A DNA stretch of 64,000 nucleotides, taken from NCBI GenBank assembly GCA_012295275.1, contig CM022673.1, positions 18,538,001 to 18,602,000 of the forward strand, written 5' to 3'. Each line of letters opens with the position of its first letter. Position 1 is the stretch's first letter. This DNA is from Chrysomallon squamiferum (Eukaryota > Animalia > Mollusca). The position numbers and the translations under genes are program-made. The notes under the pieces were generated by a model. The model was not told the origin of the DNA. It saw nothing but the letters and a program-made list of their open reading frames with translations, and made no database searches. This document shows, one piece after another, positions 970 through 60,669 of the stretch.

Positions 970-1525
970 CTAGCAAATACGGCCATTGCAGCACTTGTTG
1001 AATGCTGCATCATAACTTCGTCGTCCACAACATGCAGGACGTATTCCACTTCTGGGGACAACGTTTCCCCCACAGCACATGTTGAATGTTGCATCATAAC
1101 CTCGTGTTCCACAACATGCAGGACGTAGTCCACTTTTGGAGACAATGTTTCCCCTGCAGCACATGCTGTATGTTGGACTGTAGCTTCTGTGGCCGCATAC
1201 AGCTGTATTTCAAAAATTAATATAATGACTTTTATATATTTTCATTACTATTATCTGCCTGACTCTCTATCAGTCTTATCTCTATATCAATATATATTAA
1301 ATATAGATCTATGCATTTACCTGATGCCTGTGTACGCGCACCTGTATATAAATCGCTAATATTAAAACAATTACCTGGAAGTGTTCAAAAGGCTGTGTGT
1401 TTGTGTAATCAAAGCTTTGTAAGAAAATTACCTTTTGAAAAAACCCAGGCTGATGCTCCCCTTGGCTGAATGCATGTGATTATTAATACAGCGACACAAA
1501 AAGCCAAAAGAGAAATATTCTGCAT
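970..1525 (-). CDS. Galaxin-like secreted Cys-rich peptide, copy A (2 repeats, 108 aa); coding exons 1432-1525 and 970-1202
   Basis: Exon 1525-1432 encodes MQNISLLAFCVAVLIITCIQPRGASAWVFSK (hydrophobic core, ASA cleavage motif) and ends in G|GTAATT. A phase-1 intron 1431-1203 ends in TTTTTGAAATACAG. Exon 1202-970 encodes (A)VCGHRSYSPTYSMCCRGNIVSKSGLRPACCGTRGYDATFNMCCGGNVVPRSGIRPACCGRRSYDAAFNKCCNGRIC*. Splice sites are conserved in the paralogues. Confidence 0.85.
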
Positions 1526-2312
1526 TTTCTTTTTTCTTTACTTTTTTTAAATGTCTGGAGAGAGAGAGAGAAAAAAAAAATGGCATTATTTCTGATATTA
1601 ATAAAACAATATACAATGTATATATAAATTAATATCTAAAATTATATAAATGCAGAAGCCCATAAAATTAAATAAATGCAGAAGCCCATCAAATTATATA
1701 AATGCAAAAGCCCATACATTATTTGCGATTGTAATATTATAATACTGTAATATTAATTTTAATAATAAAATATAACGAAAGATTAAATCAGAAACATCGA
1801 AGTCGGAAATAATAAAAACTGAAGAAACACCATTGTTGGCTATACACTTAAGTTTTAATTTATAATACTTTCCAAAGCCTATAATCTCTCTCTAATGGAT
1901 AATCCTACGTACTACTACTGCTACTAATAATAATACTAATACCACTACTACTACTAATAATAATGTAAAACACATTCATGCCATGTGACAGTTTGAGTTA
2001 ACGATGTAAGAAAATTGATAATATAATCGATTTATAAATGTTCTGTTGCTGAACTACACAAATTGGACAGTATTACTTATTACTAAACTGAATACCCTGT
2101 ATCTGTTATTACAGAGGTGGAGAATTCGATTGAACAGTTTATTGCTGTTAAAACAAAACCAATACAGTATTAACCAATCTAAAATAAAGAAAACTAACCA
2201 TCAAATAAATCTAAAATTTTAAATTTTGATATAATAAATCGATTAACAATTCTAAATAAAAACTTAGGTAATTTCTTTCAAAAGCAGTCGCAAATTATGC
2301 TAGCTTATGTCC

Positions 2313-2403
2313 TTTATATATTGTTCTGGGTTCCAAAATTTAACACATCTTAGTACAGTAACACTAATGGCCAATCGAAATTGTTTACCACTCCAATAGG
2401 CGG
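2313..2403 (-). promoter_or_regulatory. Putative core promoter of copy A (TATATAAA plus two CCAAT boxes)
   Basis: TATATAAA on minus at 2313-2320, CCAAT at 2371-2375 and CCAATAGGCGG at 2393-2403. The same arrangement occurs upstream of C, F and G. Confidence 0.6.
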
Positions 2404-7768: not shown

Positions 7769-9311
7769 CGTTGGGGCGTTTGTATGATAAGCAAACTCTC
7801 AATTAATCATCAACAGACTGAAGATTTTTTTTTTTTTTTTTCGCACTTGGTGTTGGTGAGTGTGAAAAATCCTAATTCGCATAAATATGATATTGAAAAT
7901 TGCAGTAAAATGGCTAAAGCTTTTTCGGATATTGACTGGTATTCTTCTCTGATTGAAATCCAAAACTTTTCTAGACTATATTCCTTATATTTAATCTTCA
8001 GTCTACCATCGGTGCATACAGCTCTAGTTCTTCTTCTTCGGTTAATGTTAAACTAGCATCATCTGAAATTTCTATGAGTGGATTTCGAACCCAAGCGTAT
8101 TGTTCAGTGATGGAAAATAATAATTACTGGTCTTGTTTTTATATAATTTACAAACTCAGCAGCTTGATTCAACACTTCTCTTAATTGTTTTGCGATTAGT
8201 GCTTTTCTATGAAGAAAGCAGCGAGTTATGACGAAATTTTCATTTTTTTTTTTTACAAAGAATGTAAGGCCCTTAATGCAGCCTACCATTGATGGAGCTC
8301 CATCTGTGCAAATGCCGACACACAACTTCCATGCTATTTGCCATTTGTACAGATAATTATTCAAAATATTGAAAACATCTTCGCCCTTAATTCTTTGCAA
8401 AAAAGAAACTGATTTACAGTTTGAACGTCATCAATAAAATGAATAAATGCTGAGAGCTGCGCTTTGTTGGCATTGTCTGTTGACTCATCAATTTGTATTG
8501 CAAAATCTGAATACTGAAGTTTATTACAACAAACATTTTTCTCGATATTAGATGCCATATCTAGAATACGTCTGTGGACAGTATCGTTGGAAAGAGCGAT
8601 CTTGTTTATTTCATTTGCTGCTTCATCTCCTAGCATTGATTTCACAGTCTTCTTATGCGCAGGTAGAATGAGTGACTCGCCTAAAGTATGATCTTTCATA
8701 TTTTGTGCTATCAGCTACGAAACCTCGTAAGAAGCGATTTGAGCTTTTTCAGAAATCGTCATTATACTTTTGAAAGAGTTTCCTGCTATCGTCTGCTGTT
8801 CTATCAATCTTTTGAAATAACTTACAGATTTACCTTGTAAATGAGAGTGCTTGGTTTTAAAATACTTGCTCAGTTTACTAGGAACCAATGATCCGTTTCA
8901 CATTTTACATCCACATATTAAACATAGCGGCAAAGGATCATGTATGTTTCCAGTCCTATGAAAACCAAATCCTAAATAACTTTCATCGCATTTGAGGTAG
9001 ACCGCGCTTTGGCTCTCTTACTGGAACATGTTCCGTTGTGTTCATGTCCGGAATAACATTCGAGTTTGTATTTTAGAAATGTTTTCATTTAAACGAGTTT
9101 ACAACGTGTATAAAATCTTCTTCCGGGCAACCGGCTATTTCTTGCTTGATATCTTTCCGCTCTTAACATAATAATAACGATATGCCATAAAAAAACCATT
9201 TTAATGCTGAAGTGTGGATATAATGTACTATAAATCAATTTTTTATCATCACAAATATCTACCTAGATCCTAGAATTTCGTGGGGCACACTGCACCCTTT
9301 GAGAATCACTC
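7769..9311 (-). mobile_element. hAT DNA transposon (Buster/Charlie, ZBED8/SCAND3/FAM200-like transposase), internally deleted and frameshifted, nested in a LINE
   Basis: Transposase motifs HTLGESLILPA..LSNDTVHRRI, FAIQIDESTD, CVGICTDGAPSM, CFLHRKALIAK, and C-terminal FWISIREEY..SYLCELGF. The 5' end GAGTGATTCTCAAA resembles a Charlie terminal inverted repeat (TIR). An 8-bp target site duplication (TSD) ATTTGAAT (7761-7768) / ATTTGAGT (9312-9319) flanks it, and the empty site is in the LINE copy at ~37455. Confidence 0.9.
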
Positions 9312-11864: not shown

Positions 11865-11990
11865 CTAGCAAATACGGCCATTGCAGGTTCAAATCCACTT
11901 CTGGGGACAACGTTTATCCAGGGTATTCAGGGTGGAGAATTTGATTGAATGCTTTAATGCTGTTAAAGCAAAACAAATACAGTATTAATG
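11865..11990 (-). pseudogene. Galaxin-like copy B, deletion remnant
   Basis: Retains the 3' UTR, CNGRIC* and a NVVPRSG fragment joined almost directly to leader exon 2 sequence. The signal exon, most repeats and the TATA region are missing. Confidence 0.85.
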
Positions 11991-21806: not shown

Positions 21807-23024
<1,218 letters not shown>

Positions 23025-23280
23025 TTTTTTTTTCTGTGTAAAAAAGGAAAGAAAATTCACATTATTTATAACATTAATAAAGCAGCTCAATACTAGTAAT
23101 GGTTAATATTACATAACAAAAATAACAATAATAATAATAATAATGTAAAACGCATACATACAAACAACCTATTATGTGTGACAATTTGAGAATAATGATG
23201 TAAAAGAATTGCTAATATAAACATTTAAAAATGTTCTGTTGCTAAACTATGCAAATTAGGCAGTAGTACTTACTACTAAC

Positions 23281-23643
23281 CTGAAGATCCTGGATCTGTT
23301 ATTACAGAGGTGGAAAATTAGATCGAATGCTTTAATGCTGTTAAAAAAAGAAAGAAAAAAAAGAATATTCACCAATCGAAGGTGAAGACAACTAATTATT
23401 TGCAGTTTTTGATACATTATAAAATGAATCTAAAATGTTAAATTTTCATACAAAAAAACGATAAACACTTCTAAATAAATGCTCACCTAATTTCTTTCCT
23501 AATCACAATCGCGAAGTAAGATTAACTTATGTCCTTTATATACTGATCTGGGTTCCAAAATTTAACACTTTGATAACACATCTGAGTACTACGGCCAATG
23601 GAAATTTTTCTATTGCGACATTTGTCGTAACTCCAATAGGCGG
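23281..23643 (-). promoter_or_regulatory. Promoter and non-coding leader exons of copy C
   Basis: CCAATAGGCGG at 23633, CCAAT at 23595-23599, TATATAAA at 23542-23535. Exon 1 runs ~23512-23487 and ends in AG|GTGAGC. Exon 2 runs 23337-23281 (TTTTTTAACAG acceptor; CAG|GTTAGT donor, with a second GTAAGT 7 nt further). The signal exon starts at 23033. Confidence 0.65.
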
Positions 23644-28071: not shown

Positions 28072-28548
28072 CTAGCAAATACGGCAATTGCAGCACGTGC
28101 TGAATGCTGCATCAAAACTTCGTGTTCCACAACATGCAGGACGTAGTCCACTTTTGGAGACAACGTTTCCCCCGCAGCACATGCTGAATGTTGTATCGTA
28201 GCTTCTGTGGCCGTATACAGCTGTATTTCAAAATTAATATAATGACTTTTACATATTTTAATTACTATTATCTGCTTGTCTCTCTTTTAGTCAGTCTTTT
28301 TCTATGTCAATCTATCTGTTACACATAAATATACATATATCTATCGATCTATGCATTTACAATTACAATCGCTAATATTAAACCAGTCACTTCAAAGTGT
28401 TCAAAATGTATTTATGGTGTGTATTTGTGTAATCGAAGTTATGTAAGAAAATTACCTTTTGAAAAAACCCACGCCGATGTTCCCCGTGGCTGAATGCATG
28501 TGATTATTAATACAGCGACACAAAAAACCAATGAGAAATATTCTGCAT
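28072..28548 (-). pseudogene. Galaxin-like copy D (1 repeat), frameshifted; exons 28456-28548 and 28072-28220
   Basis: The signal exon is 93 nt (1-nt deletion), giving MQNISHWFFVSLY*. The repeat exon is open: AVYGHRSYDTTFSMCCGGNVVSKSGLRPACCGTRSFDAAFSTCCNCRIC*. The TATA box has decayed to CATATGAAG (~29261-29269) and the exon-1 donor to GAAAGT. Confidence 0.8.
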
Positions 28549-29689
28549 TTTTTTTTTTTTTTTTAATTGTCTGGCGGTATTTATGATACTAAATAAACAA
28601 TATACATTACGTATATGTACATATTTATATAAAAATTTATATAACTGCAGTTATAATCGCAAATATTTTAAACTTGTAATAGTCTGGTATTATTACACTG
28701 TAATAATGTTGTTTTTTAATAATAAAATATAACATAAAAAGATTAAACTGGAAATATCCAAGTCCGAAAATTTGAAGAAAGAAACGCCATTTGTGAATTT
28801 ATAATACTTTCCAGAGCCTATAATCTCTTTCTAATGGTTAATCCTACTAATAATAATATTACTACTACTACAACTACTACTGATACTACTACTACTAATA
28901 ATAATAATGTAAAACACATACATGCCAAAAAAAAACAAACTATCACATCTCAGAATTTGTGAATAATGATGTAATAAAACTGATAATATAATCAATTTAT
29001 AAATGTTCTGTTGCCAAACTATGCAAATTAGGCAGTTTTACTTACTACTAACTTGAAGACCCTGGATCGGTTATTACAGAGGTAGAGAATTCGATCGAAT
29101 GCTTTAATGCTGTTAAAATAAAACCAATACAGTATTAACCAGTCGAACTAATTATTTGCATTTTTCGATAGATCTTCAAATAAATCTAATAAAATAATAC
29201 GATTAATATTCTAAACAAAAACTTTCCTAAAATATTTCGCGAAATAGGCTAGCTTATGACCTTCATATGTTGATCTGGGTTAAAACAATTTCAGACTTTA
29301 ATAACACATCTTAGATTAGTAATGGTGATAGCCAACGGAAATCTGTCAGCGCTCCAATAGGCGGAAAGATGTTGCACATCCGTCTAAGGAATGAACAACA
29401 TGAGCTGAAAGCTGACATAAATGTGTAGTGCATCTAAATATATCCAGCTATTTAATTTCATTAATTGATATAGATCTATCGAGTCACAAGTGTAGATATG
29501 TACCTTGTTTGTATCATGCATTAATTTCGAGTATAATCCACATGTATGTGTATTCAAAAATATGTATATATATTGTTTTGGTCGTACACATATTTGAGCA
29601 GTTATAAGTAATTTTATATGTATTTTATACACAAACACTAAATCACAATAACAACAGTAAGACGCTCAGAGGCGCGCGCGAGCGCACAC

Positions 29690-37875: not shown

Positions 37876-37949
37876 TAAATTATATTTATTATGTTAGTAT
37901 TCTTCTTATTGAACTGGACTGCAAGTTTTCCATTCGTATTTGTTTTCTT

Positions 37950-38232
37950 CTAGCAAATATAGCCGTTGCAGCAGTTGTTGAATTTTGCGTCATAGCCTCG
38001 TGTTCCACAACATGCAGGACGTAGTCCACTTCTGGGGACAATGTTTCCCCCGCAGCACATGTTGAATGTTCCATCATATCCTCGTCTTCCACAACATGCA
38101 GGACGTAGTCCAATTTTGGGGACAACCTTTCCCTCACAGCACATCCTGAATGTTGGACTGTAGCTGCTGTGGCCGCATACAGCTGTATTTCAAAATAATG
38201 ACATTTACATATTTTCTTTACTATTATCTAGT

Positions 38233-38323
<91 letters not shown>

Positions 38324-38579
38324 TTATATATATATAATTAATGTATTAAAATATATATAATATATATTAAAATATATATATTATATATCGATCTATGTGT
38401 ACATGTAATAATATTAAAACAATAACCTGGAAGAGTTCAAAATGTATGTAGCCTGTATATTTCTGTAATCAAATAAGAAAATTACCTTTTGGAAATACCA
38501 ACGCTGATGCTCCCCATAGCTGAATGCACGTTATTATTAATAGAGCTACACAAAAAGCCAAAAGAGAAATATTCCTCAT
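37950..38579 (-). CDS. Galaxin-like secreted Cys-rich peptide, copy E (2 repeats, 108 aa); coding exons 38486-38579 and 37950-38182
   Basis: MRNISLLAFCVALLIITCIQLWGASALVFPK|AVCGHSSYSPTFRMCCEGKVVPKIGLRPACCGRRGYDGTFNMCCGGNIVPRSGLRPACCGTRGYDAKFNNCCNGYIC*. Canonical splice sites and all 12 mature Cys retained. Confidence 0.85.
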
Positions 38580-39145
38580 TTCGTTTTTTTTAATTATTAT
38601 TATTTTTTTTATCTGTAGAGAAAAAAAGAAGATATTATTTATAATATTAATAAAGTAATATACAATACTTTCTTATTTATATAACTGCAGAAGCCCATGA
38701 AATGGCAAATATTTTTAACTTCTAATGGTTTAATGTTATAACACTGTAATATTCTTAATTTTAATGATACAAAGATCAAATCGGAAACATCCAAGTTGGA
38801 AATAATAAAAATTAAACAAAGAAACATCCTTGTTGCCTAATAGAGGGTTCTAAATTAATAATACTTTCCAAAGCCTATAATCTCTCTCTAATGGATAATC
38901 CTACGTACTACTATTACTACTACTAATACTACTACTACTAATACTACTACTAATAATAATAATGTAAAACACATACATGGAAAAAACGATCATGCGACAT
39001 TTGAGACAACGATGTAAGAAAATCGATAATATAATAGATTTATAAATGTTCTGTTGCTAAACTATGCAAATTAGGCAGTATTACTTACTACTAACCTGAA
39101 GATCCTGGATCTGTTATTACAGAGGTGGATAATTCGATCGAAAGC

Positions 39146-39239
39146 TTTATAGCTGTTAAAACAAAATCAAAATTTAAAACTTTGATACGACATCTGAGAA
39201 CTGTGGCCAATGAACATTTGTCATAATTCCAATAGGCGG
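39146..39239 (-). promoter_or_regulatory. Rearranged promoter of copy E (new TATAAA plus conserved CCAAT boxes)
   Basis: TATAAA on minus at 39151-39146, CCAAT at 39207-39211, CCAATAGGCGG at 39229-39239. The ancestral TATA and exon 1 are deleted. Confidence 0.5.
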
Positions 39240-39384
39240 ACAGCTTCTGCACATCAGTCTAAGTGATAAACAATATGAGTTGAAAGGTGACATAAATGTC
39301 TCAGCGCATCTACATGTGGTTAAACATACCCATCTATTTCGTTTGATTAACTGCTACATGTCTATCACAAGTTTAGACACACAC

Positions 39385-39427
<43 letters not shown>

Positions 39428-41252
39428 CCACACATAGTGAATATATTTCTAATATTATATAATATATTTTCGGGGACAGATTAAAGGAGTAATCGTTCTC
39501 AGCAGAATGAAAATAATTATGTTAATATACGTTTTAAGCTATGTTTTGTATTAAACAATATGCTGTTAGTGACACAGAATATACTGGAAACTTAACCCAC
39601 CAAAGCAAGTGCGTACAAATTTTGCCAAAGAGCGCTGCCGAACTCTTATTACAGCAAGGCCAAAGTTTCAAGATTATCTTTCGTGACCTCAATGTATATG
39701 AAAAGGACCCGCTTGTCTTGTCGTTTGTTTTTCTTCAGAACCTCACTTTCCTCTGTGGGCCCGAGTACAATTATTGTATTCCCGCGGAATCGAAAAGTTA
39801 ATCCAGCAAGAGCAGCCTGATAGTTTTCGAAACTGCGTTTATCTTTCGTGTGAGAGAGAGCGCTTGCATAATATTATTTTATTTTTATAATTTGGGGTGT
39901 TTATTTATTTACTTATTTATTTTACTTTTCTATTTATCGGTTATCTTTTCATCTATGAAAGGTAAGTGATTAATAATTACTTTTTTCACTTAAAATAAAG
40001 AAAAATAAACGAAAAAAGAACAATATATAAAAATTGTGTGGAAAAAGCACAATGTAAAAATAATAATTAAAAAAATGTATTTTAGAAAATAAAAATGTAC
40101 TGATAGATGGTATGTTACGGCTGAAATATAATGCTGTTCCATTTGTTCTACGACATCGCATGAGACGTATAATAATCTTTACACTGTCGATGATATTAGC
40201 TAGTGGTGCACGTGAAAACGTATTACTGCTACAGCTGCTGTTCTCAGCACACTGATTACAATGACAAATTATAATAGTAACTTGTTTCAGTCCATTTTTA
40301 ATAGTACAGATAATTTTAAAACAAAACACATCTATACAGATTAAACTTATTTTTACATTTTCTGAGCTTCTTTTAATTTTCTACTACATGTTTCTGATCC
40401 CGAAAAAATTAATGTAACTTGTTATGTTCCTAAGCAATGTCTCAAGTAGTGTTTGTGCGTTAATTAACCGAAGTTCTAACTCAAGCTTGATTTAACTTTG
40501 GCACATCTTCCAGTTTCATATCTACCGACAGAATCAAATATTTAGGAGGTGTTGTTTTTGTTGTTGTTTCTTTTGTTTGTTTTTGTTTATTTTGTTTTTG
40601 ATCATTGTTGTTGTTGTTGTTGTTCTTTTTCTTTATTTTTTTTTTAATTTGGGGTGGGTTCAAAACCAGATGAACAACAAGTTTAATAGAAATATATTGT
40701 ATTTACTAAAGGAACGTATTAACTCATGATTTTCTCAGTATTTAGTTTTACTGCCATGTTTCAGTGACTGCCACTAATTACCTAGACATGATATTTTTTT
40801 ATTATTCAGTGTTGATTTCTTTTGTCCAATCATAATGTTTGTGCATGTGCCATTGTTGTTTATTTTTATTTCTCTCTATTTATTAACAATATTAACACCA
40901 CATAACATTGTTTGTTTTAAATTTTATGTGAACATAGCTTTGTAAAACAATATCAAATTGTGATTATTAATAATTTCCCAACAATAATAATTCATATAGT
41001 ACAATTATATACAAATTAATATCAGTTTTAAAAATATTAAGTATATAATGATAATCGACAGTTTTTGGTTTTCGACCCATAAAACATATAATCCACCTCC
41101 AAGCTTTTATTAATGCCCCGAAAACTGGAATCAACATGTAGGTCCACCTATCCAGTTTGTCAACCTGTGATCAAGTTAAAATGAAATAAAAATGTGTTTC
41201 TTTCTTAAAATGCTTTGATTGGTTGAAGTTCCGAAGTGACTGACACTTGTGG

Positions 41253-43920: not shown

Positions 43921-45009
43921 TTAAGTTTCATTTCTTTTTGTGACAATCTTTCGCTTCACCAGTATAATTTCAGACTGGAAAGCATACACCTTGAAGTTTA
44001 TTATTAATTAACTCAAATAAACCATCCTCTTTCCTATTTCTATTCTCTTATGTAACGTACAAACGAATCTTTTTTCTTATTTGTAAAAACTAACATGAAT
44101 ACTTTTCATTTCTCACTTCTTTTTCACATTCGACCAGGATAAATCATAATTAATTGATGATACATGTAATATAAATTATGAAATGTTTCTAAATAGGTAT
44201 CTGATATATAACTATTTCATTTAAAAAGTATTCCCTTTTTTAAGCATAAATTTAAAGTTAAAAACTAAAAGATATTTATTATTTTTTTATTTACTAAAAT
44301 TTATTTATTAATTTGGAAAGGTAAAACCATTAAAATAAGTAATTTAAGAATTTAAGTATGTCTGTTTTAATTATCTTTGTCAGTACTTATAATTCCGTTA
44401 TTGGTTTCTAATTGAATTAAACTGAATTGTAGATGTTTTTCTCTGATGTACTTAAGATAATGTGTAGCATATTATTTACGATTTCCTGCCACGTACAAAA
44501 GCAAATGTTTTTACGGTCCGGTTAATATTTGAGAAACTCAAGCATTCTCTGAACTAAACATAGTTAATCAAAGAAGTACATTTTTAAATAGAACACCCTT
44601 CATCCATGACAGTATGAGGTTTTCACTGTGTATATTTAAAACATATTATCACTAAGTTATGCATTTTCGATACAGAGCACTTTTCATAACGGGAAACTGT
44701 TGCTTTAGTGCCTGAAATATTTAGTGGAGTAAAACATATATCTTCCATGATGGTTAGAAAAAGTATTGAAATATATAACTACTACATGTTTCAGTATGGA
44801 TATTTGCACAAATGTTTACTTCTAATTTACTTTTTCTTTCTTTCTCTCTTTTTTTTCAAAATTTATTTTTGACTTCTAAGATGATTTTAACATATAAAGA
44901 AAGTCAATGACTGTTAATTTTTGTTTTTTAAAACGTTTGTTGTAAATTTATGTTCTCGGAATAAAATAGTTAAAATGAAAATGCCTGACACTTTCGAGTT
45001 CCAACAATT

Positions 45010-45430
45010 TTAAAACAGCGTACCTGCACAACAATAACATTCAGGTCCTGCCCTCTAAATCTCCGGATTTGAAACCTATAGAGCATTTATGGGACGATTT
45101 GGATAGACAACTGAGGCAGCATCAACCACAGCCACAGAATCGTGCTCAGTTGACATTATTACTACAGACAGAATGGGTCACCATTCCACAAGGTGTAATA
45201 CATAATGTCATTACTGCCATGGGAAGGAGATGTCAGGCAGGTCTGGACTCCCATGGTGAGCACACAAGGTATTGATAGTATACTGTTATAACCTTGAACT
45301 TTAACCTTTTCAATGTAATACCATCAAAATTAATGAACTGCGAAAGTATGTGTAAAATGTGAACATTCTACTGCTTTCTGTTGATCCATTAGATAGATAT
45401 TCCCAATGTCAATAAAATCTACTTTTGTAT
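45010..45430 (+). mobile_element. Tc1-family transposase C-terminal fragment
   Basis: PSKSPDLKPIEHLWDDLDRQL...MGRRCQAGLDSHGEHTRY* matches the Tc1 SPDLNPIEHLW..GHTRY signature. Confidence 0.85.
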
Positions 45431-45536: not shown

Positions 45537-45630
45537 CTTGTGATGAAAGCCACGCGATGCAGCCTATGGCTGAATGCATATAATCATTAATATAGCGACA
45601 ACAAAACAACAACACAGAAATATTCTTCAT

Positions 45631-45665
<35 letters not shown>

Positions 45666-46195
45666 GTTGGTAGAAATTATTACATTAATAAAGCAATTCA
45701 TGATTTTCAATTCATAATAATTTCTCTCTAATGGATAAGCCTACGTAATAATAATAATAATTATTATTATTATGATAATATAATTAATTTATAAATATTC
45801 TGTTGCCAAGTTAGGTAGATTAGACAGTATTACTTACTACTAACATCAATACCCTGAATCGGTTATTACAGAGGTGGAGAATTCAATCGGACGCTGTTAA
45901 AGCAAAACAAATAGAATATTAACCAATCGAAGATAAAGAAAACAAATTATTTGCAGTTTTTGATAGATCATCAAATAAATATAAAATTTTAAATTTTGAT
46001 ATAAAAGAACGATTAACCATTTTAAATAAAAACTTACCTAATTTTTTTGGCAAACCACAATCGTGAAGTACGATTAGCTTATGTCCTTTATATATTGATC
46101 TGGGTTCCAAAATTTAACACATTGATAACACCTCTGAGTACGATGGCCAATGGAAATTTTTCGTCTGCGACACTTGTCAGCATTCCAATAGGCGG
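45537..46195 (-). pseudogene. Galaxin-like copy F: promoter, leader exons and a decayed signal exon (45537-45630); repeat exon absent
   Basis: The signal exon has +1/-1 indels, a TAG in the ancestral frame and a GT->GC donor change. TATATAAA (46087-46094) and CCAAT (46147) are intact. A Tc1 fragment sits where the Cys-rich exon and 3' UTR should be. Confidence 0.8.
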
Positions 46196-57152: not shown

Positions 57153-58450
57153 CAACTTATTTGGTTGTGAAATAATAACAGTCATCATTTCTATCGAAAT
57201 CCATAGAGTTATTTTCGTAATTTACCTTGCATAAGTTATGTATGATTCACATCGTCGGTGAACAAACATGAGTAGGATCCTACGCTTCTTACTCTCTTGT
57301 AAAGTGAGTGTATAGCAAACTCACTGTTGTGTTGATTCACATTTTCTGATGACTTTACTGACTATAAGGTCGTTTGTACCTGTCGTTGAACAACAACTGT
57401 AAACCGTATTGCAAATGCTTATTTTCATGTTACTTTCTCAAGTGTTAATAATCCTTGAGTATCTCCACTACATCATCGCAGGCAAATATATTTTACAATA
57501 TTTTCTACTGCAATCAGATATATTTCAGAAAAGTTAAATATTAACAGCTTTCTTTTAGTACGTAAAAATTGAGTGGTACTGTACTTTTGCTTACATATGT
57601 TTCAAATTCTAAGATGATTATCAGCTGTCTTTTTTCTTCATTCAAAATTCGACGGTTCAAATTAAAAATATAAACAGAATGGCAGAGGTAATCAATGAAA
57701 AAATTGTACTTATTAATTATGAAATATTGTTACAGAACTGTGCTGCAAGTTTTGCATTCGTATTTGTTTTGTTTTTTCTATATGTGTGTATAATATATAT
57801 ATAGTATTCTTGTTACAGAACTATGCTGCTGTATATAAAAAGATTAAAAAATCTGGAAAACATTCAAAGTTCGGAAAAATGAAATGAAAAATACAGCGAC
57901 ACAAAAGAAAGATAAAATTCACCATTGTTTTTTTTTTCTTTTTCTTTTTTTTAACAGAGGCTTTATTTTTAAATTTAAAATACATAAATTTATATATAAA
58001 ATTTTTCGAAGTCTGTATTTCAATGTCTTTTAATACTTTAATATTATTAATTTTAATAATATTATTAATTTGGATAATAACCGGAAACATCATCGAAATA
58101 ATAAAAATTGAAGAAAAATATATTTTTAACAGAGGGTTTTAAATATTTAAAATACTTTTCAAAGTCAGACATAATTTCATCGAAAGATATATTTTAAATA
58201 TTTTTAACAGTTTTATTTTAGAAAAGTTAAATATTAAAGTTTGCTTTTGTTGCTGAATTTTTGCTGAAATATGTTTCAAATTCTAAGATTATTATCAGCT
58301 GTCTTTTTTCTTTATTAAAAATTCGAAACTTCAAATTAAAATAAGAACAGAATGTCAGAGTTAATCAAAGAAAAATTTGTATTTATTAATTATGTTAGTA
58401 TTCTTGTTACAGAACTGTGCTGCAAGTTTTGCATTCGTATTTGTTTTCTT

Positions 58451-59056
58451 CTAGCAAATGTGGCCATTGCAGCAGTTGTTGAATGCTGCGTCATAGCCTC
58501 GTGTTCCACAACATGCAGGACGTAGTCCACTTCTGGGGACAACGTTTCCCCCGCAGCACATGTTGAATTTTGCATCATAGCCTCGTGTTCCACAACATGC
58601 AGGACGTAGTCCACTTTTGGGGACAACGTTTCCCCGGCAGCACATGTTGAATGTTGCATCATAGCCTCGTGTTCCACAACATGCAGGACGTAGTCCACTT
58701 TTGGGGACAACGTTTCCCCCGCAGCACATGTTGAATGTTGGATCGTCCACTTTTGGAGACAACGTTTCCCCCGCAGCACATGTTGAATGTTGGATCGTAG
58801 CTTCTATGGCCGCATACAGCTGTATTTCAAAATTAAAATAATGACTTTTATATATTTTCATTACTATTATCTGCTTGACTCTCTATGAGCTGAACGGTGA
58901 CGTAAATGTGTAGCGCACCCATAACTTATTAAATATATCCAGCTATTTAGTTTCATTAATTGGTATCGAGTCAGAAGTGTAGATATTTTGTTTACATGTG
59001 CTAGTTTCGAGGATAATCCAAATGTATGTGTATTCAAAAACATATTCAGTTTTGTC

Positions 59057-59094
<38 letters not shown>

Positions 59095-59382
59095 GAAACA
59101 CATACAATACATACATACATACATACATATATACACACACACATATATATATATTAAATATAGATCTATGCATTTGCCTGATGCATGTGTACACTCACCT
59201 GTACATAAATCGCTAATATTAAAACAATTACCTGGAAGTGTTCAAAAGGCTGTGTATTTGTGTAATCAAAGCTTTGTAAGAAAATTACCTTTTGAAAAAA
59301 CCCACGCCGATGCTCCCCTTGGCAGAATGCATGTGATTATTAATACAGCGACACAAAAAGCCAAAAGAGAAATATTCTGCAT
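58451..59382 (-). pseudogene. Galaxin-like copy G (3 repeats plus a 52-bp partial duplication causing a frameshift); exons 59289-59382 and 58451-58819
   Basis: The signal exon MQNISLLAFCVAVLIITCILPRGASAWVFSK is intact. The repeat exon is 369 nt (317+52). The tandem 52-mers start at 58693 and 58745. Normal splicing gives ..VSKSGRSNIQHVLRGKRCPQKWTTSCMLWNTRL*. Confidence 0.7.
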
Positions 59383-59755
59383 TTTATTATTTTTTTTGTT
59401 TGTTTGTTGTTCTTTTTTTATTAATCTGGAAAGAGAAAAAAAATTGCGTTATTTATAATTTTAATAAAACAATGTACGATACTTACATACATCTATATAT
59501 AAATTTATATATAAAATTATATAAATGCAGAAGCCCATAAAATATTTGCCAATGTAAACTTTTAATACATTAATATTATAACACTGTAATATTATTGATT
59601 TTAATGATAAAATATAACGAAAAAAGATTAAATCGGAAACATCGAAGTCGGAAATAATAAAAAATTGAAGAATGAAACACCATTGTTGGCTAACAGAGGG
59701 TTTTAAATTTATAATCTTTTCAAAGTCTGTATTCTCTCTCTAATGGATAATCCTC

Positions 59756-59807
<52 letters not shown>

Positions 59808-60162
59808 TAATAAAAGAATTTGAGAATAATGATGTAAGAAGTTTGGTAATATGAACATTTATAAATATTCTGTTGCTAAGCTAGGTAGATTGGACAGTAT
59901 TACTTACTTCCGACATGCATATCCTGGATCTGTTATTACAGAGCGGAGAATTCGATTGAATACTTTACTGATGTTAAAGCAAAACCAATACAGTATTAAC
60001 GAATCGAAAACAAAGGAAACTAATTCTTTCCACTTTTTGATAGATCATCAAATAAATCTAAAATTTTACATTTTGATATAAAAAAAACGATTAAGAATTC
60101 TAAATAAAAACTTACGCAATTTCTTTCCAAAGCACAGTAGCGAATTAGGCTAGCTTATGTCC

Positions 60163-60248
60163 TTTATATATTCATGTGGGGTCCAAAACACCTCATAGTA
60201 TAGTAATGGTAATAGCCAATGGAAATCTGTCTGCACTCCAATAGGCGG
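60163..60248 (-). promoter_or_regulatory. Putative core promoter of copy G
   Basis: TATATAAA at 60170-60163, CCAAT at 60216-60220, CCAATAGGCGG at 60238-60248, exon-1 donor GTAAGT at ~60110-60115. Confidence 0.6.
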
Positions 60249-60465
60249 AAAGATATTGCACATCCGTCTAAGGAATGAACAACATGAGCTGAAAGGTGAA
60301 GCAAATCTGTAGCGCACCAATACATTATTAAATATATCCCGCTGTTTAGTTTCATTAATTGGTATCGAGTCAGAAGTATAGATATGTGTTGTCTTGTTTA
60401 CATGTGCTAGTTTCGAGGATAATCCAAATGTATGTGTATTCAAAAACATATTCAGTTTTGTCTTG

Positions 60466-60504
<39 letters not shown>

Positions 60505-60523
60505 CAAACACATACATACTACA

Positions 60524-60552
<29 letters not shown>

Positions 60553-60556
<4 letters not shown>

Positions 60557-60669
60557 CTTTACTTTTTATGCACGATAGAGTTGGTTGTAATGCAATTTAT
60601 AATATATATAAACTTTGTATATATTAAATAATTCTTTATTCAGGATATATATATATAGGTATGCACGAT

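Follow-up and report, generated by a model that had tools for sequence, protein, structure and literature searches.

Can a duplicated gene that has lost its core promoter regain one from its own exon sequence? The question is raised by a cluster on the minus strand of a 64,000-nt stretch of Chrysomallon squamiferum DNA, hereafter the window. One copy of the cluster, copy E, carries a TATAAA word beside a deletion junction, and the first-pass annotation proposed that this word rescued the promoter.

Seven copies of a galaxin-repeat gene

The window is animal DNA of about 30% GC, rich in internal similarities. By tblastn and alignment, we found in it seven minus-strand copies (A to G) of one gene encoding a galaxin-repeat (PF24748) peptide. 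The frame is intact only in A, C and E (108, 136 and 108 codons, respectively), and B, D, F and G are broken (4/7). The six siblings of E are the following.

970..2397 (-), paralog A: ORF intact; carries TATATAAA at 2320; alterations in the two predicted 5' UTR donors
11880..11977 (-), paralog B: pseudogene (fused remnant); promoter replaced; exon-2 start fused to last-exon end
21807..23637 (-), paralog C: ORF intact and longer by one repeat; carries TATATAAA at 23542
28072..29358 (-), paralog D: signal exon frameshifted; alterations in proximal CCAAT, TATA and exon-1 donor
45555..46189 (-), paralog F: signal exon with a stop and a frameshift; promoter intact
58451..60321 (-), paralog G: last-exon frameshift from a partial repeat duplication; promoter intact

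In copy B (11880-11977), the start of exon 2 all but abuts the end of the last exon and the proximal promoter is swapped for unrelated sequence. The last exon of F was not found by tblastn. Its expected place, 44979-45275, holds a DDE_3 transposase fragment (PF13358, E=1.7e-06, just under the cut-off). The last intron of G contains, at 58885-59155, a duplicate of G's own upstream promoter flank (60284-60559, 89% identical). Immediately downstream of G, at 57161-58164, are remnants of a further copy, namely its 3' flank and a portion of intron 2. Elsewhere in the window, two overlapping open frames at 8104-8714 have no Pfam match at 0.01; we take them to resemble a broken hAT/ZBED-type transposase.

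The number of copies in the genome appears larger. One contig of run X1, of 174 nt and depth 456 (about 11x single-copy), retains intron 1 and differs at 14 positions from the exon-2 region that it matches. Total X1 depth over 39038-39171 is about 700-760, summed contig depth being a rough guide only. X1 depth suggests many more genomic copies than the seven of the window.

The coding part of copy E comprises the following features.

38486..38612 (-), signal-peptide exon: ATG at 38579; hydrophobic N-terminus judged by eye
37950..38182 (-), last coding exon: encodes galaxin-like repeats with 12 Cys; stop codon at 37952-37950; PF24748 E=8.5e-18
37885..37890 (-), AATAAA polyadenylation-like signal

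As had been claimed, the ORF of E is intact; it has 108 codons and 12 mature cysteines. PF24748 bit scores are 65 for E, 66 for A and 88.5 for C, all above the curated cut-off of 28. A search of 1.84 billion representatives gave 591 matches at E values up to 0.001. Names are carried by four of the ten clusters examined, including a Sinanodonta protein (59% identity) and, as the named relative of highest identity among these ten, an uncharacterized Gigantopelta aegis protein (67% over the repeats); these names make a mollusc the likely host. A word-based protein search returned no matches. The E peptide (37950-38579) is the most diverged of the cluster, with 23 private non-synonymous changes vs 14-15 in A and C. 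This divergence could reflect specialisation.

Predicted promoter and leader of the family

In copies A, C, F and G, a pair of ATTGG boxes and a TATATAAA box lie ahead of a predicted exon 1, which is short; an intron, a predicted exon 2 and the signal exon follow. In all four, the full TATATAAA box matches TATAWAWR at 8/8 positions. This conservation suggests that TATATAAA and the predicted start form the core promoter of the family. The proximal CCAAT, the TATA and the exon-1 donor are all lost or altered in pseudogene D; that D lost them together suggests that these words matter in the family.

The division of the leader into exon 1 and exon 2 is a prediction. Alterations affect the exon-1 donor in A and D and, in A, the two exon-2 donors as well. 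Because A has an intact frame while both predicted donors are absent, the exon model is weakened. An unspliced leader would contain 1-4 ATGs in A, C, F and G, which favours an intron. Two details of the siblings touch on the leader. Copy A (2040-2260) has a perfect TATA and CCAAT and an intact frame with both leader donors altered, and a 21-nt deletion in its intron 1 makes a new donor-like word. In copy G (59975-59968), the exon-2 acceptor AG is changed to AT and a CAG is found three bases further on. The acceptor of G thus looks shifted, which supports the acceptor site as real. A metagenome scan with an exon-2 motif gave 0 matches.

A deletion removed the predicted family promoter from copy E

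The seven-copy alignment confirms the loss of about 200 bp first noticed in E. The missing segment runs from the TATATAAA box through the predicted exon 1 and most of intron 1. Its size is 198 nt relative to G, 174 relative to A and 158 relative to D, A and D carrying small deletions themselves. The surroundings of the junction are as follows.

39229..39233 (-), distal CCAAT box, read as ATTGG in the direction of the gene: retained by E, with aligned counterparts in A, C, D, F and G
39207..39211 (-), proximal CCAAT box, likewise ATTGG in the direction of the gene: retained by E but not by pseudogene D
39168..39170 (-), deletion junction: TTG microhomology (CAA on plus); about 200 bp missing
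39153..39167 (-), remains (pyrimidine tract and AG) of the predicted acceptor of old exon 2: putative role, from conservation

The CAA microhomology that had been placed near 39168 is thus found at 39168-39170. Both ends of the deletion read TTGG in A and G, and the E junction reads TTGA. A short identical sequence is present at both breakpoints with one copy kept, 3-4 letters being a weak sign in AT-rich DNA. A branch-point-like word upstream of the relic acceptor is deleted in E.

An assembly artefact is an unlikely cause of this junction. A 356-nt X1 contig covers 39051-39370 and bridges it with 0 differences, at a depth of 39 vs 47-49 in neighbouring single-copy contigs. X1 is possibly the window's own source; the contig therefore argues against an assembly error, yet it is not an independent individual. 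Among the X1 contigs listed, those of paralogs at 80% likeness end at 39166-39171 and none crosses the junction; no second paralog bearing the deletion was seen among them. X1 depth over 39194-39224 is explained by the E contig and two paralog contigs beginning at 39214. We also considered an ancient tandem duplication of the promoter/exon-1 unit, which would have restored the spacing automatically. It was rejected, as 10/10 alignment tests were no better than shuffles (p 0.09-0.96).

A TATAAA word beside the junction

The feature that raised the idea of a rescue lies at the start of the old exon 2.

39146..39151 (-), new TATAAA: T at 39151 unique to E; A at 39150 common to copy A

The reported difference between B, C, D and E is real. 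CAGCATTAAAGC was found exactly three times (B 11962, C 23340 and D 29112) and CAGCTATAAAGC once (E 39155). At this site, B, C and D read ATTAAA and only E, one of the seven copies, reads TATAAA. A has AAT at the same place, one change from E, G has AGT, and F has an 8-nt deletion. Since A, G and F differ too (3/6 other copies), the site is labile and only the T at 39151 is unique to E.

The spacing was less well preserved than first proposed. The distances given for CCAAT to TATAAA, 56 nt in E vs 55 in C and F and 53 in A, were reproduced when counted to the inner TATAAA of the old box; G, at 48, had been omitted. Counted to the first T of the full TATATAAA box, the distances are 51 in A, 53 in C, 53 in F and 46 in G, vs 56 in E. 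With a range of 46-53 among the paralogs, the spacing is not tight and E falls outside it.

The new word also differs from the lost one. The E 8-mer misses TATAWAWR at 2/8 positions (7 and 8), the ancestral word also at 2/8 (1 and 4), and the lost box at 0/8. TATAWAWR occurs about once per 370 nt per strand in the window (345 matches). The E word fits the looser TATAWAD described in a passage of PMC4457894. Yeast TATAAAGT, the native HIS3 TR element, is a working TATA box, according to portions of PMC2396422 and PMC4457894. Like the E word, it is off consensus at positions 7 and 8, and its first seven letters match those of E. A yeast box with T at position 4, A at position 5 has <20% activity, as stated in part of PMC2396422. 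By analogy with yeast, the change to TATAAA would strengthen the site. Unlike in E, the eighth base of TATAAAGT is a different one, and the yeast result carries over to an animal promoter by inference.

Downstream of the TATAAA, a start site and a first exon can be predicted.

39118..39126 (-), predicted start region: 39120 is the best candidate, at 31 nt from the T that opens TATAAA
39089..39120 (-), predicted new first exon: ends at 39096 or 39089; 25-32 nt; no ATG
39083..39095 (-), two donor-like words: starting at 39095 and 39088; the second in C, D, F and G, absent in A

The start prediction for E rests on the usual TATA-to-start distance. A TG step (pyrimidine-purine) is found at 39121-39120, 31 nt downstream, and the old boxes have similar steps about 29-30 nt below. 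If transcription starts at 39120, the proximal CCAAT lies at -87 to -91. This position would be inside the range of -60/-100 from the start given for NF-Y CCAAT boxes in part of PMC4889920. The exon-2 donor is intact in E, as had been stated, and both donor words are kept. The view that old exon 2 became exon 1 has to be narrowed: transcription would take in no more of old exon 2 than its last 25-32 nt.

Chance and selection

How surprising is the new word? In non-coding sequence, E has private differences at 116/1047 sites. We modelled chance with E's own substitution rate and the pooled spectrum. For a TATAAA that begins 46-58 nt away from the proximal CCAAT, the neutral chance is 0.0022-0.0036 if the ancestor was ATT (D-like) and 0.016-0.017 if it was AAT (A-like). 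Adjacent AT/TA swaps were seen at 4/918 sites, two of them looking like alignment slips; they add about 0.2-0.4%, the lower value being obtained when two of the four events are dropped as slips. The overall chance of TATAAA here is then about 0.2-0.8% (ATT ancestor) or 1.6-1.8% (AAT ancestor), in a test made post hoc and to be discounted for that. Elsewhere, private TATAAA gains number 3 per about 7400 aligned bases. E is a mosaic of C-like and A-like tracts and is closest to A in parts of intron 2, so that the ancestral triplet is uncertain.

The coding sequence of E carries 33 private changes (23 non-synonymous and 10 synonymous) with no stop and 12/12 mature cysteines, an outcome with P of about 0.007 under random placement. 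E has 10 private indels in 1480 nt of non-coding sequence and none in coding sequence. A frame kept against a random expectation of 0.7%, together with the absence of coding indels, argues that E was selected for most of its history. The constraint appears modest, since pN/pS of E (0.69) resembles that of A (0.69) and C (0.74). The frame would survive a recent loss with P from 0.55 to 0.12 for 4 to 15 later changes. The intact frame therefore does not date the deletion. In addition, with 4/7 copies dead and many more copies suggested by X1 depth, selection on one copy may be weak. Three RNA runs (X2-X4) gave no contig matching 38410-39370 at 90% likeness or 38450-39370 at 80%, a result that speaks neither for nor against expression of E.

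Letters unique to E are unevenly placed around the predicted start: 0 in 39120-39040 vs 4/50 between the junction and 39121 (Fisher p=0.02). E 39130-39051 is identical to C 23320-23240 at 78/80 positions, vs 163/200 (about 82%) upstream (p=0.0002). This near-identity is likely a gene-conversion tract that ends short of the new TATAAA. Gene conversion would account for the conserved 80 nt without selection.

A proposed replacement promoter and its alternatives

The explanation that we prefer is a replacement of the lost TATA by the new one. Through a deletion produced by microhomology-mediated repair at TTG, a TATA-like word at the start of predicted exon 2 would have come to lie 55-56 nt from the CCAAT boxes. 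The inherited word, 2/8 off TATAWAWR, may have given weak residual starts. One or two changes would then have made TATAAA, an improvement favoured by selection. NF-Y on the CCAAT boxes and TBP at 39151 would now start transcription near 39120. The resulting first exon of 25-32 nt would end at 39096 or 39089 and be joined to 38612 by splicing, and the secreted galaxin-repeat peptide would be unchanged.

The probabilities that we attach to all readings are judgements made from the computed figures. With the low chance of TATAAA and a frame apparently under selection, we consider it slightly more probable than not that E has a working replacement TATA. That selection fixed TATAAA after the deletion, in replacement of the lost TATA, is a tentative proposal that we hold a little less likely to be right than wrong. 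The same caution applies to the larger picture of a natural, base-resolved rescue of a core promoter, in which a TATA was possibly built from the old exon-2 boundary near the old CCAAT distance and part of exon 2 became exon 1. The compensatory rescue of the first-pass annotation stands in part. The low chance, the selected frame and the retained CCAAT, start and donor words speak for it, and the looser spacing, the labile site and a box that matches less well than the lost one speak against it.

Several other histories could leave the same sequence. E may be a silent or dying copy, recently shut down by the deletion, and TATAAA would then be a neutral substitution at a place that mutates readily in an AT-rich setting. 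In favour of this reading, 4/7 copies are already broken, the site varies in A, F and G, and a frame would outlive a recent deletion with P 0.12-0.55. F and G retain perfect promoter words despite broken frames, indicating that decay lags behind loss of function. We nevertheless consider a silent E unlikely: the chance of the hexamer at this place is only about 0.2-1.8%, the junction itself has one changed letter, and X1 depth fits an E copy present on both chromosomes. The order of events could also have been the reverse. TATAAA would have arisen neutrally in an untranslated exon, or an A-like tract would have needed a single change to become it. The deletion, coming afterwards, would have been tolerated because it brought this ready-made box to a usable distance; the box would work, with nothing compensated. 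This order is free of a deleterious intermediate and agrees with the A at 39150 common to E and A, with the mosaic of C-like and A-like tracts in E, and with the fact that neither the window nor the X1 contigs listed show a copy in which the old word accompanies the deletion. It is quite unlikely in our judgement, as the rare neutral gain (0.2-1.8%) must precede the deletion and no copy in the window has TATAAA without the deletion.

The hexamer could also be irrelevant, E being expressed from elsewhere, either by dispersed CCAAT-driven starts or from a TATATAAA box at 38683 with an unspliced leader.

38676..38683 (-), perfect TATATAAA in the intron: 104 nt before the ATG; rival start site

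There are three perfect TATAWAWR words at 38683, 38681 and 38643, and the interval from the CCAAT to the donor holds seven 8-mers that deviate at no more than 2 positions. The intronic boxes, however, have no ATTGG 35-65 nt upstream, the family spacing, and no GTRAG donor able to feed the relic acceptor was found upstream in 39171-41200. A start elsewhere is distinctly improbable on these grounds. Last, the changes on the side of the junction, TATAAA included, could be a by-product of the error-prone repair that made the deletion. The deleted box, which has 7 letters in common with the new one, possibly served as template. Junction repair is linked to nearby point changes; our literature search returned no paper on such a link. 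Within 40 nt of the junction there are four unique letters and one common to A, and none in the next 80 nt. This density nevertheless equals E's ordinary rate (27/208 upstream), and the ends of the deletion are not old repeats of each other (shuffle p 0.09-0.96), leaving a common repair origin very improbable.

If the replacement of the lost TATA by the new one is correct, the galaxin-like paralog most diverged in sequence would have been kept on purpose in a cluster where 4/7 copies are dead. The starting state is preserved by six sibling copies in the same cluster. Because the lost box, the breakpoints, the starting word and the changed letters can be read in the siblings, a small series of reporters could measure the expression cost of the deletion and its recovery.

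Comparison with known systems

The case of E would bring no new mechanism; it would be an instance of a known process, promoter turnover in duplicates. Such turnover in gene families is known mostly from genome-wide counts. Our search of open-access text with a few phrasings, weak evidence of absence, found no publication describing a paralog that gained a TATA at the junction of a deletion.

Birth and death of promoters, with compensatory cases, is described as common in mouse and human, and as raised 1.1-fold in frequency in genes that have paralogs and 1.2-fold in large families, in portions of PMC4579340. E would resemble these cases in the loss and gain of a promoter at one gene. The mouse and human events were counted on whole promoters defined by CAGE, according to the same portions, whereas that of E would be a gain of one or two letters at a deletion junction, seen from sequence alone.

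The encoded peptides recall squid EsGal1-10, as presented in part of PMC12773714, in their tandem repeats with paired cysteines, their expanded paralog family and their net positive charge (11-12 K+R vs 2-3 D+E here). The squid galaxins form an expanded family with high expression in symbiotic organs, and bacteria are inhibited by partial peptides of the family; elsewhere, galaxins have been hypothesised to function in shell and skeleton (both from sections of PMC12773714). Unlike EsGal1-10, the peptides of the window are short, with 108-136 aa, and an antimicrobial or shell-matrix role would be hypothetical for them.

A further likeness concerns the promoter of Drosophila Sdic, whose elements came from pieces of exon and intron after fusion and deletion (excerpts of PMC3395120). 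As in E, a tandemly duplicated gene would have drawn new promoter elements from former exon and intron sequence after small deletions. Two genes were fused in Sdic, which acquired a testis-specific pattern that is new and has a promoter tested in vivo and in vitro, as reported in the same excerpts. E, unlike Sdic, is a single gene; the CCAAT boxes upstream of it are retained, and the replacement would concern the TATA and the start alone, as far as can be read from its DNA.
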